The translations under genes and the position numbers were made by a program. Positions 9,601 through 60,613 of a DNA stretch of 64,000 nt are shown here, in pieces (positions within the stretch are counted from its first letter, which is position 1; each line of letters opens with the position of its first letter). Below the pieces are notes generated by a model. It worked only from the letters and a program-made list of their open reading frames with translations. It was not told where the DNA came from and did no database searches. The DNA is from Psammoneis japonica (taxonomy: Eukaryota), in assembly GCA_008632985.1 (NCBI GenBank), contig QPGO01000137.1:1-64000 (forward strand), written 5' to 3'.

Positions 9601-9699
9601 GGCACACAGCTTTGTGCATGCTTTCCACCATGCTCAGAGCAGTTTGTGTGCCTCCTGAGGTGTGCACAATGCTGCACGCCAACCAAAAACTTCTCTGAC

Positions 9700-20360: not shown

Positions 20361-20367
20361 CTCTTAC

Positions 20368-21968: not shown

Positions 21969-22405
21969 CTCTAGTCGTTTGTTTCCGCTCTTTTGTGCAT
22001 GGCCTTCAATGGCGGATCTATTATCGATTATAAATTCTTGTACTAAAATGTGTCCCAACGAGTCGAGCGACAGGCCCATCCATTTTCTTTCCGTCTCCGT
22101 TTCTCATTATTTCTAATCACGAGAAATTAACAATGCCAAACTTACATAGTGAAGTGGAATTAAATGTGTTCTTGTTTGGGCACTCTCTAGTCCTTTGTTT
22201 CCGCCTTCTGTTGTAGGACCTTCGATGGCGGATTTGTTTTCGATTATAACTTCTTTTATGTATCCCAACGAGTTCTCACGGGAAATAACAATACCAAACT
22301 AAGTGTAGTGGAATTAGAAAGATCGGCGTTATCACATTCTTTTATATATGTGTCCCAACGAGTTCTCATTTCTAATCACGGGAAATAACAACACCAAACT
22401 TATTC
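21969..22405. repeat. Degenerate tandem duplications of the Hsp70 3' end and UTR
   Basis: The tcacg(g/a)gaaat..aacaa..ccaaact motif occurs at ~22116, ~22275 and ~22376; tcccaacgagt occurs three times. Confidence 0.8.
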
Positions 22406-24264
22406 TCCAGAGCGTGTCCTCGGTTCTTCATCTCCTCCAGAGTGGCATCCTCGCTATCGAGTTCTAGCCAGTCCATTAATTCTTCAAGTTCCATCATTTT
22501 GTCCTCGTCGTCACAAGCACTGGTGGATTGCGCGGATAGGAGCGCCTCCTCCATGGCTGTCTTGTAGGCTGCCTTTTTGGCGAGTTCCGCATCCTGCGCT
22601 CGGTACCGTTCGGCCTCTGCAATCATTCGATCAATGTCGTCTTCGCTGAGACGACCCTTTTCCGCCTTGATGGTGGCTTGCGCTTGAGCACCCGTGACTT
22701 GGTCCTGTGCGGATACATTCAAGATCCCATTGGCATCCAATGAAAAGGTAACATCGACTTTCGGTTCGCCTGCCGGTGCACGTTGAATACCCGAAATGAC
22801 AAAGGATCCCAGTTTGTTATTTGCGTCAATGGAAGGACGTTCCCCTTCGTATACGACAACATCAATCGATTGCTGATAGTGCTCCACTGTCGTGTAGGTC
22901 CTTGTCTTTTTGCAAGGGATGGGTGTATTTCTCTTGATGAGCGTCGACATGGTTCGTCCCTCCAATTCAATCCCCAACGACAATGGCGTCACGTCCAGGA
23001 GCAACAAGTCTTGACTTTGTTGTTGCATCAAATCTTGTCCACCTCCACTACCACCCGTGGCTAAAATGTGTCCTTGTACGGCAGCACCAATCGAAACCGC
23101 CTCGTCGGGATGCAAGGTCTTTGACAATTGTATGCGTTGATCAAACATGTCGAAAAGAGCCGATTGCAAAAACGGAACACGTGTACTACCACCCACAAGG
23201 ACGACATTGGTGACTTGGTCCATTTCGACTTGAGCATCCACCAAAACAGACTTGACCGTATCCAAACATTTTTGAAAGAGATCGGCGTTGATTTCTTCAA
23301 ACACGGTACGTGATAGCGACACTTCAAAGTCAACATTATTGGGCAACAGTGAGTCAACCTCAATGTCGACGGAAAGACTGGATGATAGAGTTCGTTTGGC
23401 ACTCTCAACCGCTTGCTTCAAACGTGACATGGCACGATTGTCTTGACGCAACGCGTCTACATCGACGGATGGATGCTGCTGCTTGATTTGCTGAAAACAC
23501 CAAGTCATGACGGAATGATCAAAGTCTTCTCCTCCCAAATGCGTATCGCCACCCGTCGCCATGACTTCCAACACGCCCTCATTCATGGTGAGACACGTCA
23601 CATCAAAGGTTCCTCCACCTAAATCAAAAATAATGATATTATTTCCCTTTTCTGATGAAGAAGTGTCATTATGCAATCCATAGGCAAGCGCCGCCGCCGT
23701 GGGTTCGTTAATGACACGTCGTACGTTTAATCCTGCAATTCGCCCCGCATCTTTGGTCGCTTGTCGTTGCTGGTTATTAAAGTGTGCTGGTACCGTAATG
23801 ACGGCATCCTTGATTTTTGTCTTTAGATATCGCTCTGCTTCGTGACGTAATTCACTCAAAATCATGGCACTGATTTGTTCCGGAGACAATTGCTTTGTTT
23901 CGCCACCAAGCCACTGAACGGTAATTAACGGTTCATCGTGTTTGCCTCGCGTCACTGAAAAGGGAAATTGTTTCATCTCTTCTTGTGTTACAGAGTCTGA
24001 AAAGGATCGTCCCAAAATACGTTTCACATCATAGACTGTATTGGTAGCATTCGACGATGCCTGATTCTTGGCGGCGGATCCAACGAGCACTTTTCCACTT
24101 TGAGCACTAAATCCGACCCACGACGGCATGGTCCTGCCAGAAGCGGTTGGAATTACCTCTACCTTTTGACTCGTTTTGTTAAAGCAAGAAACACATGAGT
24201 AGGTTGTACCTAGATCGATACCAATCACAAGACCTGATGGTTCTTGCTCGACATCCGTCATCAT
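22372..24264 (-). CDS. HSP70: Hsp70-family chaperone with short lid and no EEVD
   Basis: GIDLGTTYS, TVPAHFN, INEPTAAALAYG, IFDLGGGTFDV, VLVGGSTRVP, LLLDVTPLSLG. First ATG at 24264. Confidence 0.95.
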   Translation of the reverse strand: MMTDVEQEPSGLVIGIDLGTTYSCVSCFNKTSQKVEVIPTASGRTMPSWVGFSAQSGKVLVGSAAKNQASSNATNTVYDVKRILGRSFSDSVTQEEMKQFPFSVTRGKHDEPLITVQWLGGETKQLSPEQISAMILSELRHEAERYLKTKIKDAVITVPAHFNNQQRQATKDAGRIAGLNVRRVINEPTAAALAYGLHNDTSSSEKGNNIIIFDLGGGTFDVTCLTMNEGVLEVMATGGDTHLGGEDFDHSVMTWCFQQIKQQHPSVDVDALRQDNRAMSRLKQAVESAKRTLSSSLSVDIEVDSLLPNNVDFEVSLSRTVFEEINADLFQKCLDTVKSVLVDAQVEMDQVTNVVLVGGSTRVPFLQSALFDMFDQRIQLSKTLHPDEAVSIGAAVQGHILATGGSGGGQDLMQQQSQDLLLLDVTPLSLGIELEGRTMSTLIKRNTPIPCKKTRTYTTVEHYQQSIDVVVYEGERPSIDANNKLGSFVISGIQRAPAGEPKVDVTFSLDANGILNVSAQDQVTGAQAQATIKAEKGRLSEDDIDRMIAEAERYRAQDAELAKKAAYKTAMEEALLSAQSTSACDDEDKMMELEELMDWLELDSEDATLEEMKNRGHALENKFGVVISRD

Positions 24265-24416
24265 GGCTTTTGTCTTGTTGCAGTGTTGTACCACCCCGTC
24301 GCAAGTGGAGATAGAATACAGTACAGTATGTGTACCGGTAGGGCCCTATGGTTTTGATGTCATGGTGATGTCATGTTCACGTGATGAATTTTTTATATGA
24401 CATGAGTGTCATTTAA

Positions 24417-24810
24417 GGGTGGTCGGTTGCTACTTTTTTTAGCTCGAATTCGGCCGAATAGCTCGTGTTTTGCATGATTTTTCCTGAATTTCACCGTGCT
24501 TCACCGTGGTGAAAACAACAAGCCATAAGTCTGTGACGGAGGTGGTCCGTCTACCAACTCTCATTTATTTTATGCTTGTTGTGCATCAAAGATTGCACAC
24601 ACATGAAAAGTTGGTAGAAGGCAAACTGCGTTTTTGAGAAACATCGATGATTGTCATCATCGTCGTGCTTCGATCGCGGTGCTGATGGTTCTCATTTTCG
24701 TGCATGATCGGGTGTGACTATGAACAATTCTTGCATTCAAAAATGAACACTGTGAAAAACCTCATTCAAGTGCAACGGTGATTTTGGGACAAACGCGGGG
24801 ATGACCCCCC
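24417..24810. mobile_element. Short non-autonomous TTAA-targeting element (Kolobok-like GG termini)
   Basis: ttaa|gggtggtc ... gacccccc|tcaa. Homologs at ~12570-12971 and ~18463-18862. Confidence 0.65.
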
Positions 24811-24814
24811 TCAA

Positions 24815-27240
24815 GGACATCCACGGGGGTGAGGCGAATGGGTTGTGGGTGCCGATTTTCCCGTAGTTCGCCGTGTTATTTGGACCCGTCTCCGAACACC
24901 CCCAAACACTTGTGTGTTCGACAAACCCTTGTCAGGGCTGTTAGACCGCCAGCTGTGTGAGCTGCATGTTCGAAGCTTCAAACGCCACTTGTCGGCCTGT
25001 GTCCTGTTGCTGGGTTGAAGTTGCCGCCAATTTTTGCCAAAATCGCGCTGCTTGTGGTAGATGTGAGCCACAACTTTCCTGCAGACACATCTGCAGTTGA
25101 CAAGCTAAAGATCGCACACAGTCACAACCATCGTTCATGCATTCTGTGATGTCTCAGGAGCTGACAAAGTCAGACCTGTCGCCAGACAGCGGTTTCAACG
25201 CGCATTTCAGGGCGAACGGTGAAAATGCGCTCATCACCCATTTTTCCTTCCCTCGCCGATTCATTTTGTTGCACATTGCACGTCTTCAAGTCTGTTGTGA
25301 TGGCACTCTTTGTCAGTTGAAAATGCAACTCTGCAGCATTGTTGACACCCCTTTGCAACACGCCATTTAGAGAAGACAGGCAAGTCAAATTTTTTCAACT
25401 GTGTCAGTCTGCAGTTCCTCCTTCCCCGCCAAAATCCCCACCCAACTCCTCAACATTGTTTTGCAGTGCAGTCTCTGTCTCGATGGTGAGGTTTGCCCTT
25501 TGCCCCTCTCCATCGTCTCGCCTGAAAAATTCGTCAGTCGATTGTCTTTTGTCTTGCACCGAGTGGCAGCTGATTCTGGCACGACACTCCCGAAGAGCTC
25601 GGGGAGGAATTGGAGAATTCCAAGACGATTGCCACATGGTGTCGGCTCAGGAAATCAGCAGCTGGGCCTGTTGTCAGGAACGATCGCACCGCGATCATCA
25701 AGCCGAGTTTGACACTGAGATTGATGGACTTGGTGCCAATGTGGGCGATTTTAAGTGGCAAGAATGACGATTGGTTTCTCGACAGGCTGAGCTGGAAGCC
25801 GAGCCACACAATTGTAAAAACATGGAAGTTGCCCCATTCAAGACGATTTGATGTTGACAGTCATGCGAGTGTTTTTGCATCAGTGGCAGGACTGGACATG
25901 ACAAAAAGTGAACATGGCATCATGTCTCTTTCAGCAGATGCTGCTGCACTTTGGCGGACCCTGCTTGCAAAGCAACGCTTGGCTGAGACCTCGCTCTCAG
26001 CCATCAGCAACCACTGTTTGCTCTGGGAAATGTGCTTGGGAGCACTGCATCACCAGCCCAAGCACATGACTTGTCACTCTGGGTGTTGTGCAAGATTCAA
26101 CTGCAGCACTTGAGATGATTGCCCACTGCTGCACGTCGGTTGGTTCATGGCCTGCGTGAATGGCAGGATTTGACCTCACAAGCAGTTTAGAAACAACGGA
26201 CCTTCCCAGTTCCCAGCAAAAAATTTCCATTGCATCAACCTGTTAGAAACGTCCATGCCATCAAGATCTCAAGTGCATCTCAAATGTGTGAGACCAATCA
26301 AGTGAACTTACCTGGATCATCGACCCACTGCACTGCATCAGCCCGACGGTGCATTTCTCATTGACCAACAGAGAACAGTGGCTTGAGCTGATTTTGGCTC
26401 GGATGATCCCAACAGAATGCTTCCAATGCCATCACACCAAGTCTCAACAAGTGCGCTAAGACTGCGCTGCATTGCAGAGTCCATGCTGGACTTTTCATCC
26501 ACCCCTGCAGTCAAGCTCATTCGTCCCGGCATCGTGGCATGAATCTCGTCATCAGGAGTGGCACAAATGATTGTTTGTTTTTCTCTCTGGGCTTCCACAG
26601 ATGGAACAATTTTGCACAGCATGACAGTTGGATGCAACAGAGAGCTGAAACATGGGAGACACTGGGAGAGGCAAGTCAAAATGCCATCAACAAGGCCACC
26701 ATCAGATCGATGACAACAAATCGACAAAAAACTCATTCCGACAATCCAGCACAAACCCCACATGGAAATCTACGATGATTTCCACGAAAAAAGGCACAAC
26801 CAAGATTCCTTCCACCATTGTCAACCACATCGACAACGACGACATCAAAGCATCTTGCACTGAAGAAAGTCCAACATGTGACCTCAACAATGCCATGAAT
26901 GACAACACATCTCATTTTTTCCTCAGTGTTGGCAGTTTACATGAAGTGGAACCGGCTGTTGTCGATTCATGGTGACTGCGGTTCTGAGCAACAAATTTTT
27001 TTTGTGCGGTGACAGTGTGCTTTTTCAAAACTTTGAAGATTAAAAAGTTCCTAATTCCAGTTTGATTTGGCACACCCGAGCATTTTTTTCACAGACAAAC
27101 ACGCTCACCGTTCTCGCGCGGAAACCGCTGTGTGGAATTTCATTTGGCGAACGCGCGTGCATTTAGTGCGGTGCATTCGGTTGTCATCCCAAAAAATTTT
27201 GGGTCCGCAAATGTCCGCCCTCACCCCCGTGGATGTGTCC
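24815..27240. mobile_element. 2.4-kb Kolobok-like DNA transposon
   Basis: tcaa|ggacatccacgggggtgagg ... cctcacccccgtggatgtgtcc|ttaa. RR..YY termini with a TTAA site are typical of Kolobok. No recognisable transposase. Confidence 0.7.
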
Positions 27241-27244
27241 TTAA

Positions 27245-28371
27245 CTTCAACCACCAGGGGAGCAAATCTCTGCGGGTGGAGATTTGCTCCACCCCCACTC
27301 CGCGAGCACTGCATGCTGTGCACAACGTTTCAGAGGTGTCGCGAAACTTCCCAGAGACATTGCATTTCTTGAGACATGCCGAACCTTTCAGCACACTTGA
27401 CAGTCGAAACAGGCTGAAAAGGACAGGATTTTTCATGCAGAATTCTGCGTTGTGCACAGTGTGCCATGCACAAGGTTTGAGTCGCTCAAGTTCCAAGTGC
27501 CTCATTTCAGTGGGACACAGATGGCGTTTGTTGACGATGGGTCAATGCTTGTCAGCATGTTCAATGGACAGCCTTTAAAATGGCAGCTTTCTTGTTCCAA
27601 TGACCTTGGAAGTGGAGTCACTTGTTGGTGAGGCCAACGCGCAGCTTTTGTGCGAGAAGTTGCACAAGCATTTTCTGCGTCATTTCTGCGTGAATCGCTG
27701 AATTTCATTGCACGTGCACCACATCAACCGCGCTTCAAGTGGGTCAACAAGAATGTCAAAGGCGTCTGTGACATGTTTGACACAATGAGGTCTTTCCAGA
27801 CACTTCAAAGCAGTTGGTTGATGGGATGACCAAAAGGCGCCAAAAATTGAGTTGGGCATGGCATGCTGCAGCATGCACATGTGCAATTTTTGCGATGATT
27901 TGCAAAAATGTCTGTGCGTGCAGTGGCATGCCATGCACAGCGCAAGCGGGGAATGTGGCGAACATGCAGTGGTGAGAAAATGTCATGTCGTGCACAATCT
28001 GCGTAAAAAGCACACCACGTGCATTTGCTTGTTGGGAGCAAATCTCCACCGGTGGAGATTTGCTCCCATGGGGTGGCATCATTGCTCTGTTTGTGATGGC
28101 AATTCATGACAAACTTCATTGTCAGAGGTTGAGATTTAGTTCCTCTCCATTCACAGGTGCAGCTTGCAAAAAACCCGGTGTTAAAAGTTGACATTGAACT
28201 TTCTAAATTGCAAAAAGGGTGCCTCCAGATTTTCGGCGAATGCGTGTTCCAGAACAAAATCGCACAAACAAAACATTGTGCACATCTGAAATTGCTTCAT
28301 TTGCTGCATTTGTGATGCAAGCGAGCAAATCTCCACCCGTGGAGATTTGCTCAAGTCCGGTGGTTGAAGGG
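27245..28371. mobile_element. Non-autonomous piggyBac-like element
   Basis: ttaa|cttcaaccacc ... ggtggttgaaggg|ttaa, with three gagcaaatctc..gagatttgctc palindromes. Confidence 0.85.
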
Positions 28372-28389
28372 TTAATTTTGCATTTGTGC

Positions 28390-29485
28390 TCCACCTGAGC
28401 ACTGCGATGGGTGTGGATGCAAGTTCACAATGAACCACGCTCTTTGGTGCAAGAAGGGTGACTTGGTCATCTTGCTGCACGATGAAGTCCATGACAACCT
28501 GGGTGACCCATGGGCAAGGCTTGCAAACCTTCCTGCACACGGGACGAACCCCCAATCAACCCCACCGGTCACAGCATGGGAAGCTCAAGCATCCCCACCA
28601 GTTCTCCAGGAAACACTGACTCCAACAAGTCCAAGGATGGCGATCATGGAGACCTTCTCGGCATGTGATTTTGGGATGGAAGGACAGACACAGTGACGGA
28701 CATTCGTGTCCCTCTGACATGGACGCAAAGTCACACCTGTCCAAAACACCAGAAGAAGTTCCAGCAAGCCACGAACGTGAGAAAAAGTGCGGGCACCTCA
28801 AGCCCTGTCTTGAGCAGCACCATCATTTCACGCCCTTTGCAGTGTCATGCGACAGACATCATGGCAAGGAAGCTGAGGCGATGCTCCACAAGATGGCGTC
28901 AAAGCCATCAGACAAATGGCAAAAGCCACACTCTGAAGCACGCAGCTGCATCAATGTGAGAATGAGCATTGCCATGGTCTGGGTGACCCGCCGTTGCCTC
29001 AGGGGATCATGCGTTGCTTCCCGCCCCTCAGATCAGCTCCAGATGACCCCAGCAGGAAGATGGTGCCGGTTTGTCCCCACGACGCGTTCCAGGTCTAGGT
29101 GGGACCTCGTACTACTGAACTGTGACATCGATAGTTTTTTGAATCACGTCGTATGTCGCGCACGTAGATTTCTACGTGATTTTTTCGATATTTTGTGTCA
29201 TTTTACGGTACACTTATTGAGCGATCCGTCCAACAACTTTTGACATTTTTTGTTACAGCGCGATTCTTTAATGTCTTAAGAATCGCGTAGGGCAGGCGCA
29301 TTTGCAAAAACGTCGAGTGGTAAGAGGCATAATTGTACAACAAACTTGGCCGTTTATTTGATGTTGAAGATAAATATATCCATTAATTAAATTCTCGTAC
29401 TACGGAGCTCGCACGTAGAATTCTACGGGCCCAATGTCACACGGAGTCCCACCCAGGGCTGGAACGCGTCCCACACAGATGCTGA
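28390..29485 (+). mobile_element. 5'-truncated CRE-like non-LTR retrotransposon (Zn finger plus restriction-like endonuclease), interrupted by a MITE
   Basis: CDGCG..HALWCKKG..LHDEVHD, DHGDLL..FW..TD..DIRV..DAKS, HFTPFAVSCD..GKEA..KWQKPHS..RMSIA..RCLRGS. Removing the MITE and one TSD restores the end EDGAGLSPHRC*. Confidence 0.8.
29081..29470. mobile_element. MITE family 1, youngest-looking TpA-intact copy
   Basis: TIRs gacgcgttccaggtctaggtgggac / gtcccacccagggctggaacgcgtc; TSD CCAC. Confidence 0.95.
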
Positions 29486-30298
29486 ACGACCCCGATCCAA
29501 TCAACCCCCACCCTTCCAGACAGTGTGCAAAAACCTGCCACCACGCTGAATGCGGTGCCACAATCAATTCAAATGTCATGTGCACAGCCCACGATTTGTG
29601 CACAACAACCACACCCCTCACTCGTGCGACTGCATTGACCGCACAACAACCACTTTTCTGCTTTGTGCCAGCAAAAAACCGAGTTGAGTCCCATTTTTGC
29701 CATGTGTTGAGTGGCCATTTTTTGCCCATCATTGGCCTGAAACTGACCATTTCTTTGCATTTCCTGGCTTTTCATGATCTCTTGGCGAGTTCTTTGATGA
29801 CAGTTGGTTGTGAAATGGGCTTGGGATCAGCTCAATCTAGCTGCAAAAGTTGCGCCTTTTTCATGCAATGACTCAATTCAGTCTCCCTGCACATTTCTGC
29901 GTGTCAAGCACCAGAAAAAATTCAACACACCTTCGAATCAGCAAGCCAGCCGCACGCAGCACAGAGAAGGAGAAGTGATGACATGTGATGTGTGCATGTC
30001 TTGTTGACAAAAAAATTGCATGGGAGTTGTTGAGCCTCATTTTTGCTTCAAAAAGTGCAAGCGACCATGTTCGATGGCAACGGGCAGCCAGAGAAAACTG
30101 AAACACCCAAATCCAAACACATGGTCAGAAGCAGCAGCAGCTGAAGATCATGACAGCAACAAAAATGGTTTGATTGCTTGGTTTTTTCATCATTTTTGTC
30201 GATTGATTCAACACATGTGTTGGATGAGGACTCAGTTCTGTCATGAGGGCTCAGCTCGGTTTTTTGATGGTGCACAAATGCCAGTGGCAACAGCAAAA

Positions 30299-33200
30299 GA
30301 CGGGCTCCAGTCCCAGGTGGGACTTTGTGTGACATTTGGCCCATGGAATTCTGCGTGTGAGCTCCGCAGTTTGCCCGGGTGTGTTCTTCAGACACATTGA
30401 AGAACATGCCCAGCACATTTTCATTCTCACAAATGTTGAAAATAGAAAGCATTTGGTTTCACAAAACAGGGAGCATGAAACAACTTTGTAGAATGTCGCA
30501 CATGGAAATGCACGTGCACCATGCTCGAAGAACGAGTGCAAACGAAAGTAGAATGGTGCATGAAAAGTGGAAATTATGAGATTGAATTTTGCTCTGTGAT
30601 TTTTGGTTTCTCCGAACGAGTTCTCAATGGCCTAAAGCTTCTGCACTGCTTCCACAGACAAAAGGCCTTTCGGAGAATGTGTTCGTGACAACAGATTGTC
30701 CGGATGCGATTGCCATTGACACGCAAGATGTCAACATCGTCAATCGATCGCACTTGCAATTCTCGACATCCGATCAACTCTGTGTGATCGTTCTGTCCTT
30801 TGTGCGCATCCACGACTGTGGTGCGATTGACGTGTGAATGATGTGCAATCACAAACATGTGTGCAACAGTCGCACACTGCATTCACCTCCCTAATTGCAC
30901 ATTGGAGTCATTTGCAAGTAGATTGTTCGACGGACATCGACAGTGTCAATGATGTCTCCACTTTCACTGCATTGTGCCATTGGCAATGACTGTTGTTGTT
31001 TTGCACGGGCAATGTGGGGCCACTCCAATTTCCGAATGTCTTTTGAGAGTGACGTTGTTTGTTTCTCACTTGACATGCACACATGCAGCATTGCGTCGAG
31101 TGTTCTCATTGACGTTCTTGTTGATGTGAACACAAGGACCAATTGTCCTGGAGCAAGTGTTTTTCCTGATGTCGATTGCACTGGCACATGGCATCGTGCC
31201 CAGCACTTAATGTGCGCTCTTGATTGTGGCGTTCACTTGCTTGCTTGTGGATTTCATGTAGTTTGGCGGGCTCACTTTACATGCCACATTGCTCTGCTGC
31301 ACTGCCACGTTTCACAAGTGACAACAAACGATGGTCAAAGATGTTGTGACCATTTCGTCTTGATGATCAATCCTGTGATGGTTATGAATTCCATTGTGGA
31401 TTTTTTTTTGCACTTCAACCATCTATCAGTTGGATTTTAATCGTCATTTGGACATTTCTTTCTGACACACCGGTGTCATTTTGTCGTTCCGAAGGCACTG
31501 GTTTCGTGCACTGAGTGGACAAATGTCCATTTTTCTTTTCTTTTTCTAGATCTTTGGCACATCTCGTGTGTCGACATGATGTGCATTTTAATGTCTTGCC
31601 TCGTACATTGTACAATACAACCGCACGGGTGTTGTGAGATTGTCTTTTGCCAGTGTGAAGTGGATGCGTATAATGCACGCCAATCTGTCACTGTTTTTTC
31701 CTAAATCGTCCTTTAAAAAGGCGATTTTATCCTTGTGACATGAGCATTTTTCGATCTCGCTCGCCTCCACGAAAAGTGTTCGTATGATATGTCGCGTCCG
31801 ACAATTTGGAGGGAATGTCTTTATCCCGTTTTAACGGTAGGACATTGTCGTAGGATTCAATTTTCTATAGTAAGTCGGCTGATCGCGTCTATCGCGACGA
31901 TGTTCGCCTTGCCCTCGTTGTATTCTAATTCGGGACTGAAGTTGTCAACGTATGACTTTGTCCGTTGTGTCTTATGATCCGTATATGTATAAATCTGTTG
32001 GCCAAACAGTATATTTCGGAATTTTATAAGTGTTTTCACTATGGACAGAAGTTCTTTTTTCCGTTGTAACATATAATATTGAAATCCGTGTATGATAACA
32101 ATATAGTTTTTGATTTGATACGCTCCATATTTTCGGAGACTTTTCGTTCCGTACTTGTACTTTTGCCGTTTGACCTTTATTGAGGTGAATTTGGCTAGTA
32201 TTGTACAGGAGATCGTTGAGACTACATGTCTCGATAATAGTAACGTATGACAACGAGATGTCGTAGTGTTCTTTACGTTTTTCTCGTGTTGCGATTGCTT
32301 GAATCGCCTCCATTTTCTTTGTAATCGATTGCATATCGTTACGTATGGAAGTCTTGATAGTTTATTTCAAGTTAAATAGTGAAGGACTTTTGTTGTTAAC
32401 CTTCTAAGCAACTGTTCTAGTCGTTTGAATGCCGTATTAAGCTGTTACTTGTACAGGTGATATTTTGAAGTTACTTTTGTCAGGCACAAACGATCACATA
32501 TAGTCGTTCTGACAACTTCAAACCTGTTATGAGTTCACTCAAGTGTTGTATAAAAATATCTGGGGCTCTATAGATTCTCATTGGAAGTCCATAGTACTCA
32601 TTTTCTCCCCACGGCATGATTTTCGTGTGAGCACGACGTGTGCTTTTTTTTATTTGACATGGTGGCATTCCATGTTTGAATCAAATAGATTACATATATG
32701 AAACGTTCTTGCTTCAATAGTATTTCCTGAATATTGGGTAAAGGATACACCACCTGTATGAACCTTATACTAAGCTTCTGAGTGTCGGATGCGGTCGAAC
32801 TCGACCTGTTTTCTTTAGACAATGAGTCTCAGAGCGACTTGTTCAGAGCAATTTCATTCTTAAGACTTCAATCTTTCATAATAGGTCAAACTCCTTTTGA
32901 TTGGACGCCTCCAAAGACTATGATAGGAGAAGGTTCTCACGCGTCGTGGAATCGCGTCAGATTTTCCACGATGAGATCCACTGATGCTTCCCATGCATTC
33001 GTCTGAGGAACTTTTCAAAACGATTTCAACCTCTTAAGAAGAAGATTGAGTTGGTTGTGTTCATTTGGGTTAGATGCATCGCCGTAGTTGTCACTTGATT
33101 AAGATCGATGGCGTGATGATGTGAGTCGAGGACCATTGGTTCCGTCATTGACTCTATTCACGGCGTCACATTTTTCAATGTGATCGGTTTTCAGCTTGAA

Positions 33201-35330
33201 AACATCGGCATCGAAGAGTGTGTGAACATTCTTCATAAGGTAATTGCTTCTTCCCATTAGATTTCTTCATTTGCACAGTCCAATGTGACTTGTGGGACTG
33301 GACATTAAGTCGCGTCCCATGATCACATCATTTGAACCTGAAGAAAATTTGGTGTTTTCAACATGTGCTGTTTGCATGTCAGCATGCCTTAAATTTCGCA
33401 CAGTGAGAACTGAATTCGGTGTTTGCCATCAGTCGTAAAGAGCTCACCCTTGGTTTCCCAAGTTTTTGGTGGCGGATTCTTGTGTTCTCAACTTTCGCAC
33501 GAATTTGCGCAAAATTGTGGTTGACGATGTTCCGTCATCGATGGGAACACGTAGATGCTTTTTTTTCTCTCCTTTCCCAAGGAAGTGTTCACATAAATGA
33601 TGACTCCTGGACTGGTGTGAATTATTTCTGCCTTTTTTCTAGGCTTCCCAATGTCCAGCAAAGCATGCAATTCGTGAATGGACCAAAATTATTCTTCGGA
33701 TTCAGTCTGGATCATCCGATCAAATTGGCATTTTTCTTCACTGAGGGTGTCAGAATCTGATTCTTTGCCCTCATGCTCTTTTTCTTTGTTCAAGGAACTT
33801 GCTTTGAGCATTTTTTGAACCGCCTGATCAATCATGACGTTCATCTCTTTTTTTGCGAGCGGCATTTTCGTTGTCGCGACGCGACCGCGTGCGATTGCCA
33901 TTTGAACGGCGCATTTTTGGGTCTCTTTCAGAGTCACCCTTGCACTCTTTTGCTAGTTCATTTTTAGAACAGCTTCAATCCGTGACGCAGGCATTCTTTT
34001 TTCAAAGATGAGACCTTGCACTCACTTTGGATTGTTCTGGCACCACATGGGAGACCATTTTTGGAACCAAATTTGGAGCCTTTTTTATTTTGGAACCAAC
34101 TGCGCCATCAGAGCCTGAGTTGATGTGTTTTTTCGTCACGGACGTCATGAACGACCTTTAGATGACTCAAAACTTAATCAGCTCATCAAGGATGAGTTGC
34201 AATGGTTGATTGTTTTGGACAGTAGACTGATGCTGCCATCCTTGCGGTGCGAGTGATGGCTGACAAATCAGCGCTCGGTTTCCCGCTAGATTCGACTTAG
34301 AATCCATCTGAGGGTCGCATGGACTCTCATCATTGACCTCTTGGGTCTAACAGAGGCTTTCTTGCTGTCAAGCAGCTCTGGTTTCTTCAGATCGTCTTGA
34401 AAATGACAACTCTGATTCTGAAGTGCAATTCTTGGAAAGACATGAGACATGAGACTCTTGGGGCACTTTCCAACCGTTCCATCTTGCTCTTGGACTCGAG
34501 GCTCGTTGATTCGGTCTCCAAAAACTCTCCAACAGTCTCTCCTTGCATGCCAGACGCATTTCTCGGACCTGATCGACTCGGAACTTGCACTCTCTGCAAC
34601 CATGACTTGGTGTAGATTTTTTGACAATGCGGTGTGCTTGAGAGCCCTTGATCCTTGGGTGCTTGGAATGGACCGCATTAAAGCGAATCCTCTTGTCTGG
34701 CAGACGAAAAACAGCGTTCCATCTTGAGGTGCTGCTCGGCTTGAGCTTCTTCCGCTCGGAAATCGATTCCAGCAGAACTGATGCGATTCGTTCCTGTTCA
34801 TAGAAGAATTTGCAAAGGCACATTAGTTAAAATTTTCATTTTCCGTGCTTTTTACCTTCTGTGGTGTGCATGCACAATGCACTGTGCTCGAAGAACGAGT
34901 GCAAACGAAAGTAGAATGGTGTGCGAAAAGTGGAAATTATGAGATTAAATTTTGCTCTGTGATTTTTGGTTTCTCCGAACGAGTTCTCAATGGCCTAAAG
35001 CTTCTGTGCTGCTTCTACAGACAAAAGGCCTTTCGGAGAATATGTTCGTGACAACAGATTGTCCGGATACGATTGCCATTGACACGTAAGATGTCAACAT
35101 CGTCAATCGATCGTATTTGCAATTCTCGACATCCGATCAACTCTGTGTGATCGTTCTGTCCTTTGTACGCATCCACGACTGTGGCACGATTGACACACAA
35201 ATAATGTGTAATCATAAATGTGCACATAACAGTCGCGTGCTGCACACGTGCGCGGCATGCAATGCGATCCAAAAAACTGTTGATGTCACAGCTCGGCAGT
35301 GCAAGGTCCCACCCAGAGCTGGAATGCGTC
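30299..35330. mobile_element. MITE family 1 copy split by a Gypsy insertion (halves 30299-30514 and 35245-35330)
   Basis: gacgggctccag... and ...ctggaatgcgtc termini with TSD AAAA. Confidence 0.9.
30515..35244 (-). mobile_element. Ty3/Gypsy LTR retrotransposon with degenerate pol
   Basis: 367-bp LTRs at 30515-30881 and 34878-35244 (TG..CA); TSD CACG; PPT gggaggtgaa next to the left LTR. Minus-strand order: protease (ALLDIG, DVIMGRDL), RT (YPLPNIQEIL, PWG..Y..LPM..PDIF), RNase H (KELLSIVKTL..FRNIL..YTDHK), integrase C-terminus. Confidence 0.92.
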
Positions 35331-36833
35331 AAAATTCTGAGCCATGTTCTCCCTCTAAATCTCGAGTTGCCGAGAGTTGCCAGCTCCGCACCACAGATGG
35401 ACTTTTGCACCAAATTCACGCCACGGAATTTCCCTCAAATGTTTGACATCATCATCAGTTGATGCACGCGTGCTGACACATCACCAAATCAAACCAAACA
35501 AATCCCCCCTCCACCCAACACCAATGCAGGCTGATGCCGACATGCCAAAAAAAGACAAAAACATCAGACACAACTCTCGCCGTTGTTGCATCATTGCCGC
35601 GCCAGTGCAAAAGCTGGAGTCAAAAGCACTGCCACATGAGCCACAGGCCACACCAGCTGTGGTGCCATCACACCACACGCAGTTGGGTTCATGGCGTGCG
35701 GCACCTTAAAAAGCACTGGATGTGTTCCCAGGTGACGCACAAAACAACAATCGATTTTGAATGTGAGTTGTGTGTCTCTCAGTGCGTGCAGCATTTTGAC
35801 ATGAAACACTCAGACGGATTGACTTTCACAGGCTTCTAGAGTGTTAACATTTAAACAGTTTTTTGAGGGTCATTCAAATCCTCATGGAACATGCATCACA
35901 AACTTCCTTCAGTGGACTCAATGCTGATTGTGCGCCAGCAGATTTGCACTGAGATTTCTTTGCAGGTGGAAAACCTGCCAGGTGGCATTGCAGAAAGACA
36001 CACTTGGGTGACATCCAAACAACGGCAACATTTTCGCCGAAAATCATCCGCTGTGTTACGAATCTTTTAACGCAATGAAAAACACAAACAGCGCAATGAC
36101 AACAATGACGTTGCAACACTCACACGAGTCTTGTTGGTGTTGCAAAACATCACATTTGCACAAATCCATGCTTTTGGTGGTGAAAGTTCGATCGCAAGTC
36201 AGGGGCCGTGCAAAAATCGTGCAAATGTCGTTTTTGTGCACGATTTGGTTCATGTGCGGCTGGGACACATCCCCAGGTGAGAAACTTTTGGACACATCAC
36301 AAGGTTTTCCATGTGTTTCCATGTGAGATGCACATTTGTCCCCAAAAATCCATGCAGAAAAATCGAGCTCCAGCATCATGACAGGAAAAACACATTTTTC
36401 CTCTTGTCTTGAACCACAAACCACAAATCGTGCAAAACAAAAATGACACCATGCCGCTGCCATGAACTTGTCCATTTTTGCACCAACGGGTGTTGTGACT
36501 GAGAAGGTGAGAATGCCAAGACAGGTCAATGAGACGACACTCAATGCGACGATGTGGTTGAAAATTTGATCTTTGCCGTTTGTTGTGCCTTGTGGATGGC
36601 CTTTTGACTCATGATGTTTTTGATGCCTCCAGTCGTGGGTCATCTTTCCACCAACCCAAATTCTCCATTGTGTCTGCACTTCCATCAGTCGGAATTTTCT
36701 TGCTGAAGTTCTTTTTGCGCCGCATCCACTCAATTCTCAAGCCGAGTGCTTTGGGGATCACAGGTGGTGCTTTGGGGATCACAGGTGTCACACAGATGTT
36801 GGACCAACCACAGACTGGTTCAGCAGCATTTGT

Positions 36834-37258
36834 GCAGCATGCATGCAGACAAAAGGTCATTTTTGTCATGCCCTTTGTGACATTTAAAGGCTGCAACACG
36901 TCGCCGTGACACATTGACTCTTGTCAGCAGCTGCACATTGCACTCCTCCCCATGTGTCACGCGTCCATGCGGCTCTTTACTGATGTGCACTGACACTGCA
37001 CGGTTTTGGCGGAACAGTGTGGGTGTGCACGAAGGAACACACAGAACTGCACAGAGTTTCACACGTTCGACAGTGATCAACGTTGCTGCAGACAACTCCC
37101 ACTCAGGGTTTCGAACCCCTGGCCTCCTGCCTGATGGTTGCGATGAACCACTCCGCTGTGAATTGATGATGCAGCATGCATGCAGACAAAAGGTCATTTT
37201 TGTCATGCCCTTTGTGACATTTAAAGGCTGTGACATGTCGCCGTGATACATTGACTCT
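36834..37258. repeat. ~87-bp direct repeat pair around a ~250-bp spacer
   Basis: gcagcatgcatgcagacaaaaggtcatttttgtcatgccctttgtgacatttaaaggctg..acattgactct at ~36834 and ~37171. Confidence 0.85.
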
Positions 37259-37581
37259 CATTGGTGGCTGTGTGTTGCATTTGGGTGATTGTTGTGAATG
37301 TGGTCAACCCTGAAGTTTGCACTGGTCCCCAGTGCAAACCCACGGATCAACCTCTGCTTGATGCACTCAGCAGATTCAGTCCAGGCAGCTCACAATTTGG
37401 TCACCAGCACTTTTGTGAAAGTCTGAACACTCGTCATTGCTTGTTGGCAGACACTCTCAGCTTGTGTTCTGCCTGAGGCATTGCCTGGAGTGGACATCCA
37501 GCCGATGCATCAGGAAGGCACTCGGAGCTGCACGGACACGCGAGCTTCAGCTGGTTGGTTCGCCCAATTGGTGCAACTCAA

Positions 37582-37986
37582 CCCTTCAACCACCAGCCTT
37601 GAGCAAATCTCCACAGTTGGAGATTTGCTTGCTTGCATCACAAACACAGCAAATGGAGCAATTTCAGATGTGAGCAATGTTCAATTTGCGCAATTTTGTT
37701 TTGGAGCGCGCATTCACCAAAAATCTGGGGGACCCTTTTTGCAATTTAGAAAGTTCAATGTCGACTTTTAACACCGGTTTTTTTGCAAGCTCCATCTGTG
37801 GACAGAGAGGAGCCAAATCTCACCCTCAAACAATGCAGATTGTGCGAATTGCTGTCACAAACAGAGCATTGACGCCACACCCTCGGAGTTTTGGTTGTGT
37901 CATTGTGGAGGTGCGTGGCATGTCACACATCCTTGAGCAGAGCAAATCTCCACCCGTGGAGATTTGCTTCCCTGGTGGTTGAAGGG
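37582..37986. mobile_element. Non-autonomous piggyBac-like element, short copy
   Basis: tcaa|cccttcaaccacc ... ggtggttgaaggg|ttga. Inverted homolog of part of 27245-28371. Confidence 0.88.
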
Positions 37987-38225
37987 TTGACACATTCTGC
38001 ACTTCCGTTTGGGGATGCCCAGACCAGAGCAACTGTCTGCAGCTCTGATGCCATCAGTGCTTCCCTCTGGCCATGCTCCACACTCTTGACATCAAGTGCT
38101 GCGCCTGACTCCATCAGCTGGACAGCCAGTTCCGCCAGAAGGTTTGTTGTTGATTTTGCACGTGCACCATCTCAGGTCCCACTCCACCCTGTGGCCCTCC
38201 TGAGACCCAAGAGAGTTCTCTGAGC

Positions 38226-39112
38226 TTGCACTCTTTGATGGAGAACGTCCCAGACAACTGGCCCAACTCAACAGCTTCAAGCACGCTGTCGGACATGGCT
38301 GACGACCCCAAGATGTTGGAGGGCCAGCCTCCTGAGGATCAACCTCCGCCAGAGGACAATCCACCCCCTCAGGATCCCAGCGATTCAGATGACGAGGACA
38401 TTCCGGCCTTGGAACATCACCCGGATGATTCAGGTGATGACTCGGATGATGAGAGCCCACCACAGGCAATGACATGATGAATGACAAACGTCGCACACTT
38501 CAGGCCATGGCTGCGATGGCAGCGCGGTGATCCCGAAGATGAAAGTCTGCACGCCCAAGGCTCATCCCAAGATGGGGGGGGAGTTGTCTCCATTGGTTCT
38601 GCTGAGAAAGTGGCTAGGACTGGTGGGAAACCCAAGGCTGATTGGTCCGGACTGGATCCGTCTGCCAATTCCAGCCCAACGTCTCTGAACCAGCATTGGT
38701 CTCACCACATCTCTTCAGCCCAGAAGAGCAAGGCCTGCTGCGTTGCTGGCGTTTGCTCCACGTGTGGTCGTCTGAAACATTCTTTTGGAAAGGAGGACAC
38801 AAAACATCAGCATTCAGGTGGAGCCATCTTTGTTGATCACTCATCCGGTTGCATCAATGTTCAGCATCAAACTCACCTCAATGCCCGTGAGACTCTGAAT
38901 GCCAAGAACGCTTTTGAGGCCCATTGTCGTGATTGTGGCATTGTTTCCTCAAGAGTGTTTGAGTGACAATGGAAAGGCATTCACGTTGGCCAATTTTTGA
39001 GTTCACTTGGAATCTTTTGCTCAAGCATGGAAGTGTGCCGGTGTTGGGGCTCACCACCACAACGGAGTTTGTGAACGTGCAATGCACACTGTCATGTCGA
39101 TTGCAAAGAAGG
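38226..39112 (+). mobile_element. Internally deleted Ty1/Copia (CoDi-like) relic including integrase core
   Basis: GRLKHSFGKE..HSGGAIFVDHSSGCINVQHQTHLNARETL.AK..FE..CRDCG, SDNG, GVGAHHHNGVCERA. Confidence 0.85.
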
Positions 39113-39114
39113 CA

Positions 39115-40097
39115 CAAGCCCCTCCTGCAAAGTCATCACTGAAATGCTTGCTGATGATTGCCGTGCATGCGCAAAGGGTGACATCGTCCATCTCAACCCC
39201 TTTCTGGAGGACACCCACATTCTGTGTGGCTGTCTTGCGCTCATTGGGGTCCTCATCAAGCACCGCAAAAGCACTGGTCAGTTTGGAGGTGTGCATTTCA
39301 AATGACAAGCACCTTTTGTTCTTGCAACGCAGCATCTCGATCGGCGCCTTTGCCAATTGAGTGCATTTTCTGAGCTCTCCCTGGCCATTGCAGTGATCGG
39401 TTCACACCCAGAAGGCACGCTGCCCATCTTCTGTGGAGTTGAAAGACTCAATCCAATCACACCCATCTGCACTGACGAGATGTTTCTTGAGGCAATGGCA
39501 CATGGTCTTGTTGTCTGTCTTGAAGGATGGTCCATTCAAGAGAATGTCAAACATGCACTCCTCGGCGGCATCTGCAAATGCCGCTGGTGCCGCTGAGGGC
39601 CTGACCACATGTTGCAACAGTTCCTGGATGACCCCAAGCCATTGAGATAGAAAGTTGAGCAACGAGTCTTCCATGATCTCAAACTCCTCTGCCTTGAACT
39701 TGGGCAAATCGCTCACTTTTGTGTCTGAGTCATGGCGGTTGGCCTGGGCACACTTTAACTCGCGTGCCTTGACCAGTGCCGCTTGATCAAAATCTGCTGC
39801 TGCAAGAGCATGGCCACACTTCTGACAATCACGAATCCACCAAACGAAAACCTGCAAATTCTTGAGCTGGGTGGCACCTGTCACCACCCTGCCATCCTGC
39901 ATGGCGTGCCTGCCGGCATGACTTGCCAGCTCTTTGACATCCTTGTCACCTTCCATCAGGGCAAGATGTTCCAGGGTGTTGAACCCATCATGGAAGACAA
40001 GACGGGCCCTTGCACCTTGATCGTCAAAGCCGCGCACACCTGTGGGACGGTGTCAAAGTCTTCAGCTGCCGCCAAAGCCACGAGGGCTGCTGCTGGT
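39115..40097 (-). mobile_element. Copia-type gag relic
   Basis: LQHVVRP..GPSFKTDNKTM..LKKHLVSADGCDWI..EDGQRAF..LRCKNKRCLSFEMH resembles a diatom Copia gag with Y->H/C changes. Confidence 0.7.
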
Positions 40098-40101
40098 TGG
40101 G

Positions 40102-40497
40102 GACGGGTTCCAGTCCCAGGTGGGACTTTTTGTGACATTTGGCCCGCAGAATTCTGCGTGCGAGCTCCGTGCCAAAATTGTTGAGCAATGCATGTGTGAA
40201 TGATCGCCAACAGAAAAAGAGGCAATTTTGTGAACGCATCTCCTCCTCCACACTTGAAGTGCATTCTTTACAGCATGCCCGGGTGTGTTCTTCAGACATT
40301 AAAGAACGTGCCCAGTGCATTTTTGTTGTCATAAATGTGGACAACAGAAAGCCTTTGGCTTCGCAAAACAGGCAGTGTGGAACAATTTTTTACAATGGAA
40401 CACGCAGAAATGCACGTGCGAAACATGCGACGGATGACAAAAAACATTTATGTCACAGTTCAGCAGTGCGAGGTCCCACCTGGAGCTGGAGCGCATC
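40102..40497. mobile_element. MITE family 1 copy
   Basis: gacgggttccag ... ctggagcgcatc; TSD TGGG. Confidence 0.92.
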
Positions 40498-41245
40498 TGG
40501 GCTGCTGCAACAGTTCTGTTGATGGATGTGAGGAAAAATGTTGGGTTGTGAGATTTGCGCATGCACACTGGGTTGATCAGGAGACTGAACGCATTCGAGC
40601 GCCATGGCAATGGTGCCATGCAGTCAACCGGTGCTGGGTGGCCAGACCCAGACCTTTTCTTCTCATTGGGAACATGCGTGAGCTTGCTGCCCCACACTGC
40701 ACTGTCCAACACCCATTGAAATGTTGGAAACTGACTGAATCGCAAGTGTGATCCCATTCTGACCGCATCGTCTCATTGTCGACTTCGACAATTTTTGTTC
40801 ACACGTGGCAGGTTTGCACACGCAGGACTCAGGATGTTTTCTGCGGCCAGCTCCCAGGTGGTTCTCAACAACAGCAAACGCATGCGCGCATCGCTTTCGA
40901 AACAGTTCACACGATCGTGATTTCAATGCGCTCGGATGCTCACTCTGAAGCTTGGCTCTGATGAAGCGAACAAATCTGGATGTGGAGCTGTGGAGCCACA
41001 GCGCCCTTACCCTAAAAGATGCGTTATCGCATCGTTCTCTACCGGTACAAGATTATGCTACTCTCTCGTGCGTGGCCCATGCTAGCGTCGTCTGTACGAC
41101 CACCGCATCGGATTTTACTCGGGACGACTCATCAAAGCTGAGGTGCCCTACTGTACAGCCCTACAGCATCGCTGCGCGGCACCAGGCACCACTCTCCAAT
41201 CTCCATCGTGACCATCATAGCGATAGGGTATTTCGGCCCGGCACA

Positions 41246-42873
41246 ATGAGCTCGTTAGACACTGTGAACGTTAAAGAGGAAGCATTCCAAGCGATACGTA
41301 TATCTCCCGTGTATGCCAGTGGAATAGAAGGGGTTGTGGTCGATGGCTCGAGCTTTCGCCACGCCGTTACTTCGTCCTCTGTTGTGAGTATTCTCTACGC
41401 GACGAAGCTATTGGCCGGTATACCAAATCCGGCGGATTATGATTTAGATGGCCTCATTGCACTTGCCATTATGGACTCCAACACTGTTAAACAAAACAGC
41501 AGCAACCGACGGCAAAAGCGAGACCAGTGGAAGTACGCGGAAAGTGAAGACCAATCATACATTTCACTGAACACGCAGGCTCTCAGAAGCGATACAACGA
41601 TCAAATCGGTAGGACTCGAAGCAAGCGACACACATTTCATGATGTTTAAAAGCGGAAACTCGAAGGTCGATTGCTTTCGTTTCCGTTTCACAAACACTAC
41701 CGACTATGCGGTGGATCCCGATGGAAACCCTGCAGAAGTGGACAACGATTTGTTCAACCTCTGTGGGTTGTCGGACTGGGGTGACCTAACGTGTGGTGAC
41801 CTAAAAATTCACGCCCAGCGACTGGAGGTAATCCAGCATGCCCTCAGCTCTGGCGTAATTGATAGTCGGGAAGAAAAACACACCCAAATACTTTTCGAGC
41901 ACTTTCTAGGAGAGCTGGTCAAGTTATTGCCGGGAGGAAACAACTTTCGTGTGGGAAGCGTTGCTGGAATGGAACCGGTCAAGGTTGCGGTGGAAGTTTC
42001 CAACACTTATCTCGCGTCCCAGAATAAACCGACTGTGAATGGAGCGACGGGAAAACAGGTCAATTTGACGGCTGAAGCGACGTGGTAGTTATCGACGTTT
42101 CGTCAAATCCTGACCTCTCAAATAGGAAAGAGAACTTCCTGAACTGTTCCTACAGCATAGAGATGAAAGATGCAGGGAAGCTCAAGAACTCAGCGACAAA
42201 ACCAAAATCACAACTTATCGCGGAATCCTTGGCCAAGCATCTCGAATTGAAGGCTAGACTTAACCCTACTGAAGTTTTCTACTCAGTCTTGTGCGACGGT
42301 TACAGTCTCTGCATTATGCTTCACTTTGCTGAGGATCAGACTGCTTTCCCTTCGCACCGTGAGATTGAACCCGGCCGAATCGTTGTATTGCTTGCTTGGC
42401 TCCATCGATTGGCGACAGACAGAGCAAACCTGACTTCCAGTTCTTTCCGGGACTTGGATCTGATCCAAGTTGGTAACATGATGGAAGAAGAGATTACCGG
42501 CTCCTTGCATAAGAAACGATCGTCGACTGCGGCTGGAGGCTGTGATAGCGGTGGTGGTAAGCAGCGCTCTCGAAAACAACAGGCAATTACAGGCAGCAAG
42601 AGCAGGGATGAACCCTCTAGGAAGAAAGTGGCAGCAGCTGAATCGCCCGATGACGCTTGGTTTTGCCTCGACCTACCTGCGTGTGATCGGATAGAGCGAC
42701 AAGAAGAAAGGGCGCAGCAGCTCTCCATGTTTTCAGCGCTTCGGAACTACCGCAGCTTTAATGATCCATTGCCGGCAACGGAAGCTATAGTAAAATTGAT
42801 GGAACAGAAGAATGGAGGGGCCATACCCCCCTACGAGGAAAGGTTGGCTAGATTAGATGCATCAAAAGCCTAA
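41246..42873 (+). pseudogene. Frameshifted PD-(D/E)xK nuclease-like (Crinkler-type) gene
   Basis: ORFs 40952-42088 and 42082-42873 join if one base is added near 42070-42076, giving LT..SDVVV..SIEMK..PKSQLIAE..YSVLCDG. Normal TpA. May be an assembly indel. Confidence 0.65.
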
Positions 42874-43520
42874 AGTCGTGAGCTACAGTCAGAGTTCAAA
42901 GACGGTCTCAATCGAAATCTCCGGTTCATCTCTGGTCAGGAAGGGGACGTCGAGCTTCTGATCGCAGTTCCGCTGGTGGATAAACGTTGACGGCTCCTTT
43001 TCTTTGTCTACCTCCAGAGACACAACTTCGTGTTGTATTGTATATCAGCGGATAATGACGTTGTCCACATCGGTGGGTTTCACTGGAGACGCTCAGGGTT
43101 ACCGTGGTCCTTTTCTGGACGAAAGAGGGCCTTACCCATTGATTTTACCCCATGAAAGATCTTGCCTTTGAATCCGGCGACAATTTTAGATACAATGGCG
43201 AAGAACGCGGGAGCAAGGAAGAGCTTCTGCTCTCTCCAGGGTCCTGGTCCTCTTCCGCATCGATGCTTTACTCTTTCGCAAATTTGGAGAATTTCACAGC
43301 GGCTGGTGTTCCATGAAAAGTTGTGAAACGAAATCTGGTCTTGTTTCTCTTTTTTGTCCGTGACTCTCTAAAGTATACCAGGGGTCGAAATGCCGAAAGG
43401 AGAAATATTGCATTTGCAGTGAGTCTCTACTTTTGCAGGAGTAGCATTAGTGTTAAATTTGGCAGAATGACGAGGCAAACCAGCAATCATAATTTGGTCC
43501 TCATCCGCCAAACTTTTGGG

Positions 43521-56095: not shown

Positions 56096-56284
56096 TGCTG
56101 CTATAGAATGGATCGTACACTCTGCAGGTACAACGATCGTATCGGTATGCGAAATGACGAGTAGGAAGCGCTGTCATTCGCCATTCGCCATTTTCGAATG
56201 TGCAAACCCGTCTCAAATACCCAAGTAGACAGATCGACAGACGGTTTTAGTACATGTTCTACGGGCGGCAGACCTGTTGCCCAC

Positions 56285-60610: not shown

Positions 60611-60613
60611 ACA

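Follow-up and report, generated by a model that had tools for sequence, protein, structure and literature searches.

A probable region-targeted mutation process converting TpA to CpA/TpG in a long terminal repeat retrotransposon and in the non-genic DNA around it

In a 64,000-nucleotide stretch of DNA from Psammoneis japonica (assembly GCA_008632985.1, contig QPGO01000137.1, positions 1 to 64,000; hereafter, the window), we found a degenerate long terminal repeat (LTR) retrotransposon on the minus strand whose two LTRs, at 30515–30881 and 34878–35244, differ almost exclusively at steps where TpA (TA) appears to have given way to CpA or TpG (CA/TG). The reading that we favour, with a probability of about 0.82, is that a regionally targeted mutation process acted on this singly inserted element after its integration and turned TpA into CpA/TpG. 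The changes share one spectrum, one dinucleotide context and one direction, arose at the DNA level after integration, are targeted to particular regions and show no strand coordination. In the course of events that we propose, the retrotransposon would have inserted once, with a 4-bp duplication of CACG, into an older small transposon, and the process would then have converted TpA to CpA/TpG, which amounts to A:T>G:C transitions that strike the A of 5'-TA-3' on one strand or the other. Along with a slower decay of CpG, this process would also have converted the TA and CG of non-genic DNA to CA/TG, and genes with a few hundred bases of flank would have been spared, codon-boundary and third positions included.

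The element is bounded by target-site duplications of CACG at 30511–30514 and 35245–35248, both of which are seen directly in the sequence and in alignment to uninterrupted copies of the host repeat. These copies show the target, ...GAAATG-CACG-TGCG..., that is split here, and in the alignment two of them run through the insertion site with a single CACG. The presence of CACG at both ends, within an otherwise continuous host repeat, points to a single insertion with a 4-bp target duplication. Reverse transcription makes both LTRs of one insertion identical at integration, so the differences between these two arose afterwards, in chromosomal DNA.

The left LTR (minus strand; the 3' LTR in the orientation of the element) has TG...CA ends, is heavily eroded and retains 3 TA steps, and the right LTR (minus strand; the 5' LTR) is less eroded and retains 14; the LTR termini start with TGCAC and finish with CTGCA. 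A polypurine-tract-like stretch on the minus strand (30882–30895) adjoins the 3' LTR, with purines at 10 of the 11 LTR-adjacent bases of that strand. The internal region (30882–34877, minus strand) is degenerate, without a long open reading frame (ORF) and with 40–60 stops in each minus frame. A remnant ORF at 31860–32366 (minus strand) gave a reverse transcriptase–RNase H-like match (Pfam PF17917, E 4.4e-5) whose score of 24.0 bits lies just under the cut-off of 24.8; the other 17 minus-strand ORF pieces of the element had no relevant Pfam match, and no tRNA primer site was recognisable by inspection beside the right LTR, possibly because it has been eroded. The element may, very tentatively, be assigned to the Ty3/gypsy-like class.

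Aligned without gaps as direct repeats of 367 nt each, the LTRs differ at 35 of 367 positions (identity of 90.5%). All 35 differences are transitions, with no transversions and no indels (p ~7e-7, assuming that two thirds of changes are transitions, a 2:1 bias). Of the 367 positions, 200 belong to pyrimidine–purine (YpR) steps, and these hold 34 of the differences; the sole exception, 30753 (C) versus 35116 (T), agrees with a preliminary description of this DNA, which had noted few other differences. That description had also counted about 11 sites with TA in the right LTR and CA or TG in the left. The alignment gives exactly 11, with CA on the left at six and TG at five, and none in the reverse arrangement (11:0, sign test p ~0.001). 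Its example strings were all found in place, and the additional sites that it had seen with CA in one LTR and TG in the other amount to 10 steps, five with CA on the left and five with TG on the left. Among the steps that are constant in both LTRs, 33 are TG, 20 are CA, 20 are CG and 3 are TA. The earlier statement that most CpGs survive holds for the 20 that are intact in both LTRs, but two of the three CpG-variable steps, in LTR columns 317 and 359, proved to be gains of CpG through A>G after C, which leaves a single loss, at 30561.

The preliminary description had taken the paired LTRs to record the direction of change. TA is indeed the older state according to our comparison, but the pair alone is symmetric, and outgroup copies and the composition of the window were needed to orient it. 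We placed contigs from sequencing runs on 30200–34877 at a likeness of at least 80%, which gave 5284 contigs from run X1; the stretch is present in three runs (X1, X2 and X3), all from one sample. Summed contig depth amounted to ~74,000 in the LTR and ~10,000 in the interior, far above the ~30–70 of single contigs, which indicates that the LTR element family is highly repeated. Transitions make up 544 of the 643 differences between the placed contigs and this copy; among the 40 of these 643 differences that were listed, 27 are internal to the LTR, and 26 of those replace a G of the left LTR by A or a C by T.

A family consensus of CA/TG at the 11 sites would have pointed to TA as the derived state, as the preliminary description had itself remarked. 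Instead, the TA-compatible letter is present in other family copies at every one of the 11, with 11–92% of depth (74% at 30584, 92% at 30653, 52% at 30679, 30% at 30706, 37% at 30724, 59% at 30751, 52% at 30804, 51% at 30840, 23% at 30846, 11% at 30852 and 43% at 30864), and this letter is the depth majority at 6 of the 11. At the CA-versus-TG steps, the TA-compatible letter was found in other copies at 8 of 10 among the differences listed (82% at 30559, 35% at 30823, 14% at 30834, 72% at 30836, 22% at 30856, 10% at 30861, 16% at 30863 and 57% at 30875). At five further steps (30555, 30681, 30714, 30843 and 30845), both LTRs hold the same TG or CA and TA is present in other copies; such steps are to be expected if now and then one ancestral TA was lost in the same way from each LTR. 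One contig common to X2 and X3 is 24–25 letters off the left LTR, and all 22 of these that were listed have a weak base in place of a strong one.

Since TA, CA and TG all occur at one step and the LTRs were initially identical, a TA ancestor is needed; it requires one change per lineage, whereas a CA or TG ancestor would require both T>C and A>G. It should be added that a likeness of at least 80% to an eroded copy was demanded, and that depth falls ~30-fold over the most eroded 50 nt, which means that TA-rich copies were under-sampled and that the counts are biased against TA. These comparisons among copies support TA as the older state, with CA/TG derived from it.

We polarised each LTR difference to the weak base, except at 30561, where other copies have C. 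With this polarisation, A>G-type changes number 23 in the left LTR (11 plus-strand and 12 minus-strand), which also has one CpG>TpG change, and 11 in the right LTR. In total, 34 of the 35 differences are of the A>G/T>C type. In 31 of these 34 events the changed A follows a T, in two a C and in one an A. Of the ancestral TA steps, 24 are visible, and 21 of these are gone from the left LTR and 10 from the right; when ~10 invisible losses with the same outcome are allowed for (an estimate), the losses come to ~90% and ~55–60%, respectively. By comparison, 1 of the 21 ancestral CpGs was lost, in one LTR. The preliminary description had claimed that TpA is lost faster than CpG, and for this element our estimate from the counts puts the difference per step at ~70-fold, with a roughly hundredfold difference from other sites. 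Strand-coordinated clusters, of the kind left by single-strand deaminases, were not found; where CA/TG steps neighbour each other within 10 bp, 13 of 26 are concordant (permutation p 0.62).

The consequence for LTR dating is considerable. The Kimura two-parameter distance between the LTRs is 0.106 over all sites and 0.0127 without the inferred TA steps (4 differences in 319 positions), and 3 of the 4 remaining differences are again A>G-type and lie beside TA steps. The earlier warning against LTR-divergence dating was well founded, with age overstated at least ~8-fold (0.106 versus 0.013).

The same signature is seen in the composition of the window, which as a whole has observed/expected ratios (o/e) of 0.23 for TA, 0.60 for CG and 1.56 for CA/TG. 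By segmentation, 44.3 kb (69% of the window) fall into a TA-depleted, non-genic compartment with o/e of 0.058 for TA, 0.41 for CG and 1.75 for CA/TG, while the remaining 19.7 kb, the gene islands, have values of 0.60, 1.04 and 1.16. GC content is nearly unchanged (48.4% in depleted DNA versus 46.5%), and YpR steps are equally frequent in the two compartments (246.7 versus 241.3 per kb). The mass balance per kb sets a gain of 77.5 CA+TG against losses of 38.4 TA and 33.6 CG. In the non-genic DNA of the window, ~90% of TA and ~60% of CG is turned into CA/TG.

CA and TG are balanced in 40 of the 43 one-kb bins. A CA-versus-TG skew, of the kind that transcription or replication bias would leave, reached p<0.01 in 3 of the 43 bins, all three of which are compositionally skewed. 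Two of them lie in 45332–47331, a C-rich region (35–38% C) with internal repeats of 27–54 nt and an excess of CA over TG (152:84 and 154:93), and the third, at 56419, leans to TG. A microsatellite origin of the CA/TG excess was considered and rejected, because none of the 8 tandem arrays is (CA)n.

Most TA-normal segments consist of intronless ORFs together with a few hundred bases of flank, and the island ORFs encode a glutaminase, a GGACT-like protein, Hsp70, a bestrophin-like protein and unnamed products. Within genes, TA o/e is 0.3–1.0 in every codon phase and 0.53–0.98 across codon boundaries (phase 3-1; 8 gene-island ORFs). As TA is kept in all codon phases, the genes are spared by the process itself, beyond mere selection. 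The edges of the islands are sharp to tens of bases; for example, there is no TA between 40500 and 41007, and then ~1 per 10 bases. One spared island, for example, lies at 19870–24640, with the GGACT-like and Hsp70 ORFs (TA o/e ~0.6, CG ~1.07), and the others are at 2708–5665, 14899–16826, 40884–44331 and 53250–56418. The depleted domain to the right of the element, 35288–40883, is an example of depleted non-genic DNA (o/e of 0.06 for TA, 0.53 for CG and 1.71 for CA/TG), and further depleted domains are at 1–2707, 5666–6392, 6635–14890, 16827–19869, 24753–28989, 44332–53249 and 56419–64000. The TA-normal segments that are not genes are a young transposon copy, the centre of the LTR element, a 242-bp partial copy of the host repeat at 6393–6634, and 34739–35287, which is the right LTR with its inner flank.

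The host repeat, here called family X, provides an outgroup inside the window. Its members are ~400-bp elements resembling miniature inverted-repeat transposable elements, with inverted ends of ~25 nt and at least two subfamilies. The LTR element interrupts a minus-strand copy of this ~400-bp inverted-repeat element, of which the left half lies at 30299–30514 and the right half at 35245–35330; further copies are at 58153–58550, 60992–61364, 40100–40497, 56766–57156 and 6422–6609. One plus-strand copy, at 29080–29478, is uneroded and, with 28 TA per 500 bp, stands out as TA-normal from the TA-free DNA around it, so that it was probably inserted very recently. Across the family, 13 columns hold both CA and TG, with a third state of TA in 6, of CG in 4 and none in 3, and the uneroded copy has TA at all 13 variable TA columns; in the 6 columns with all of TA, CA and TG, it is this copy that holds the TA. 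TA and CG both drain into CA/TG, and TA does so faster.

CA-versus-TG steps are also present in other repeats of the window, with 31 in the 12-kb/18-kb duplicate and 6–20 in five others. Two to three occurrences of a ~2-kb block are spaced ~5.9 kb apart (12000–14250, 17085–19100 and 19270–20160; 69–84% identity); they lie in TA-free DNA upstream of two genes, and half of their transitions are in CA-versus-TG steps.

The TA steps that persist in depleted DNA have a biased choice of flanking bases. Compared with the gene islands, TTAA is over-represented 4.45-fold, CTAA 2.4-fold and CTAG 2.1-fold, while ATAC is at 0.1-fold and ATAT is found 0 times, versus 49 in the islands. This bias could reflect the preference of an enzyme or the way in which new TA steps arise. 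The right LTR lost 8 of 12 purine-TA-pyrimidine steps versus 2 of 12 others (p 0.036), and no such preference was detected in family X (12 of 15 versus 32 of 42, p 1.0).

Several observations count against the reading of a regionally targeted, post-integration process. Erosion within the element is very uneven, with TA loss of ~90% in the left LTR, ~55–60% in the right LTR and little in the centre, a pattern at odds with a constant rate as well as with simple inward spreading. At 5 of the 11 single-difference sites, it is the CA/TG letter that holds the depth-weighted majority, and the steps at 30520 and 30644 have no entry among the 40 of 643 differences listed. Three A>G-type events are off TpA (two after C, creating CpG, and one after A). 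The purine-TA-pyrimidine preference appeared in two tests and was missing in a third. Finally, everything beyond the element rests on one 64-kb window.

The unevenness can be followed along the element by TA/(TA+CA+TG), which is 0.02–0.08 in the left 1 kb, 0.29–0.46 in the core bins (31715–32914), 0.07–0.20 in the edge bins of the centre (31315–31714 and 32915–33314), 0.00–0.14 in the rest of the interior (30915–31314 and 33315–34714) and 0.10–0.22 in the right LTR. The central part, 31390–33300, has ordinary TA (o/e 0.68; CG 1.21) and is gene-like in this respect, while the kilobases on both of its sides are eroded. The uneroded centre could be due to protection, to patchy events or to conversion from a young copy.

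As for the agent behind the targeted conversion of TpA, we propose that the process is enzymatic, with an enzyme or a mark that would be recruited to silenced or foreign DNA, as has been proposed for the alga Bigelowiella natans. The simplest chemistry, and probably the actual one, would be deamination of adenine to hypoxanthine, which pairs as G. Since TpA is palindromic, deamination and a mutagenic modification of T or A leave indistinguishable traces in the sequence.

The alternative that survives best, although still an unlikely one in our judgement, dispenses with a dedicated mutator and with defence, and regards the changes as a passive by-product of epigenetic modification at TpA in silent chromatin, analogous to the decay of CpG; oxidised thymine mispairing with G, or deaminated N6-methyladenine, would be examples. 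It fits the self-complementarity that TpA has in common with CpG, the equal hits on both strands, which form no strand runs (13 of 26 neighbours up to 10 bp apart are concordant), the balance of CA and TG in 40 of 43 bins, and the fact that the TA-depleted compartment is also the one losing CpG. However, the loss of TA at ~70 times the rate of CpG and ~hundredfold that of other sites, by our estimate, is above known passive decay, and the rate changes strongly within 1 kb of one element. In B. natans, moreover, the mutations come in bursts and in some lines only, according to the preprint on that alga (Mettrop et al., bioRxiv 10.64898/2026.01.13.699255).

A second alternative, which we consider improbable, is that the LTRs were unequal from the start, as in an inter-element recombinant, or that the right LTR and the centre were patched by gene conversion from younger copies. 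Either event would explain the unequal retention of TA, that is, the 11:0 asymmetry and the uneroded centre, and potential donors are many, judging from the 5284 contigs placed. On the other hand, the matching CACG duplications oppose an inter-element recombinant, and the absence of transversions and indels between the LTRs would be unusual for patches from diverged copies. Such events would, in any case, alter only the unevenness, and neither the direction nor the nature of the process.

We hold it to be very improbable that CA/TG was original and that C-to-T changes created TA in the right LTR, in the manner of repeat-induced point mutation (RIP). The symmetric pair would allow it, as all 11 single differences are readable as C>T/G>A in the right LTR, and the CA/TG letter has most depth at the 5 sites mentioned above. 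But the 10 CA-versus-TG steps of this one insertion would also need T>C and A>G, other copies read TA at 8 of those 10, and the uneroded copy of family X is the TA carrier at all 13 variable columns. Such a process would, furthermore, enrich TA, yet its o/e in non-genic DNA is 0.058.

Equally little credence is due to a sequencing or assembly artefact caused by miscalls at modified TA sites. The runs that contain the stretch all come from one sample, which may also be the source of the assembly. Against it, 60% of the sampled 31-letter words of a 10-kb stretch are present in run X1, with 903 contigs at least 99% alike, genes on the same contig have normal TA, and eroded and TA-rich copies coexist in one run; by our reasoning, random miscalls at a palindromic step should also yield CG, yet CG is depleted. 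Least credible of all is ADAR-like A-to-I editing of the retrotransposon transcript before reverse transcription, for although A>G with a 5' U preference is an ADAR signature, as also appears in the Discussion of the preprint (10.64898/2026.01.13.699255), the LTRs are copied from the same template ends and cannot be made to differ by editing before integration, the duplication is intact, the strands of the left LTR are equally hit (11 A>G versus 12 T>C), and family X DNA transposons and non-genic DNA are eroded likewise.

The targeted loss of TA also affects the coding potential of the window. TAA and TAG together occur 2.5 times per kb in depleted DNA versus 17.8 times in gene islands. Among the 22 ORFs of at least 200 aa, 14 are in TA-free DNA, each with 0–1 tyrosine; examples of such tyrosine-poor ORFs are at 1537–2151, 7235–7963, 12972–13835, 36056–36736, 45714–46669, 47721–48341 and 52085–53342, among others. 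These long ORFs are probably spurious and due to the loss of two stop codons, and TA-free DNA is, in this sense, a trap for gene callers. Two plus-strand ORFs without a Pfam match (40949–42088 and 42076–42873) overlap by 13 bases in different frames within one TA-normal island, and together they might represent a single gene that contains a short intron or a frameshift.

The Hsp70 of the window has its closest matches among diatom proteins (64–71% identity; one gene). Among 80 loci of Hsp70 relatives in metagenomes, none had a 1-kb window with TA o/e <0.2 and CA/TG >1.4; these are distant relatives (33–63% identity to the query), and many are short or from unrelated organisms. A degenerate 32-nt pattern for other copies of the LTR had 0 matches in metagenome contigs, and Rfam and tRNA scans of the window returned nothing.

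The odds seem to us evenly split on the broader proposition that a chromatin-targeted DNA editor is at work in a stramenopile alga, probably a diatom, where it rewrites essentially every non-genic or mobile TpA to CpA/TpG and leaves transcription units untouched. If this is true, the process would be an A:T-to-G:C mirror image of fungal RIP, and LTR pairs and young transposon copies would be built-in clocks of editing activity. Together with the rhizarian B. natans, it would imply that either genome defence by TpA editing or an epigenetic mark based on TpA is widespread in the supergroup of stramenopiles, alveolates and rhizarians (SAR). At a practical level, standard LTR dating errs roughly tenfold in this case if TA steps are left unmasked. 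In addition, the uneroded copy, the half-eroded LTR and the saturated LTR constitute a natural series of substrates, which could help to find the sequence preference of the enzyme and the chromatin boundary that protects genes.

Among known systems, ADAR and APOBEC editing of retroelements in animals takes place before integration, is strand-specific and leaves clusters of deaminase-type transitions, and ADAR prefers a 5' U. The present case resembles it in having clusters of deaminase-type transitions in retroelements, whereas the changes here arose after integration, affect both strands equally and form no strand runs. The decay of CpG through 5-methylcytosine is similar in that a palindromic dinucleotide is lost to CA/TG on either strand. 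It operates here as well (CG o/e 0.41 in depleted DNA), and it explains 1 of the 35 LTR differences.

RIP in Neurospora and other fungi, as described in PMC2621366 and PMC7296669, is a post-integration, DNA-level hypermutation of repeats that is transition-only and dinucleotide-specific and that spares genes. The likeness extends to post-integration transitions in repeats, spared genes and distorted dinucleotide indices as the means of detection. The direction, however, is opposite: the RIP signature is C>T, mostly at CpA, with an excess of TpA and AT-rich DNA, whereas here A>G destroys TpA, GC is hardly altered and TA o/e is 0.058 in the affected DNA. RIP also creates stop codons, while the process described here removes TAA and TAG. 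RIP acts on duplicated sequence and needs a RID-type methyltransferase.

The closest counterpart is found in B. natans, the preprint on which was the only match for this signature in a full-text literature search that returned nothing for diatoms. According to this preprint (Mettrop et al., bioRxiv 10.64898/2026.01.13.699255), 231 of the 302 new mutations in mutation-accumulation lines fell in two integrated viral regions; 230 of these 231 were A>G/T>C, all 230 at TpA, with rates of ~6e-7 and mutations in some lines only. The B. natans genome is reported to contain 124 clusters of TpA-poor, CpA+TpG-rich windows, the TpA-poor sequences are enriched in reverse-transcriptase and transposase domains, and the authors propose an ADAT2-like deaminase (10.64898/2026.01.13.699255). 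The two cases agree in an almost exclusive A>G/T>C change at TpA that gives TpG/CpA, in a regional action on foreign or repeat DNA with ordinary genes spared, and in a long-term footprint of TpA depletion and CpA+TpG gain. They differ in host, as B. natans is a chlorarachniophyte and the host here is probably a diatom; the main text of the preprint uses no LTR pairs and contains no discussion of dating. Here the process has struck an LTR retroelement and small inverted-repeat transposons, as well as all non-genic DNA in the window, in contrast to the integrated viral regions of B. natans, and erosion is near saturation (TA o/e 0.06 over 69% of 64 kb), as compared with a Rho of 0.45 in the hypermutable virus region and 124 small clusters. 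This second, far more extreme instance, in another branch of the supergroup, suggests that the process is no curiosity of one alga; it is the same type of mutation as in B. natans, present in extreme form in an unrelated alga.

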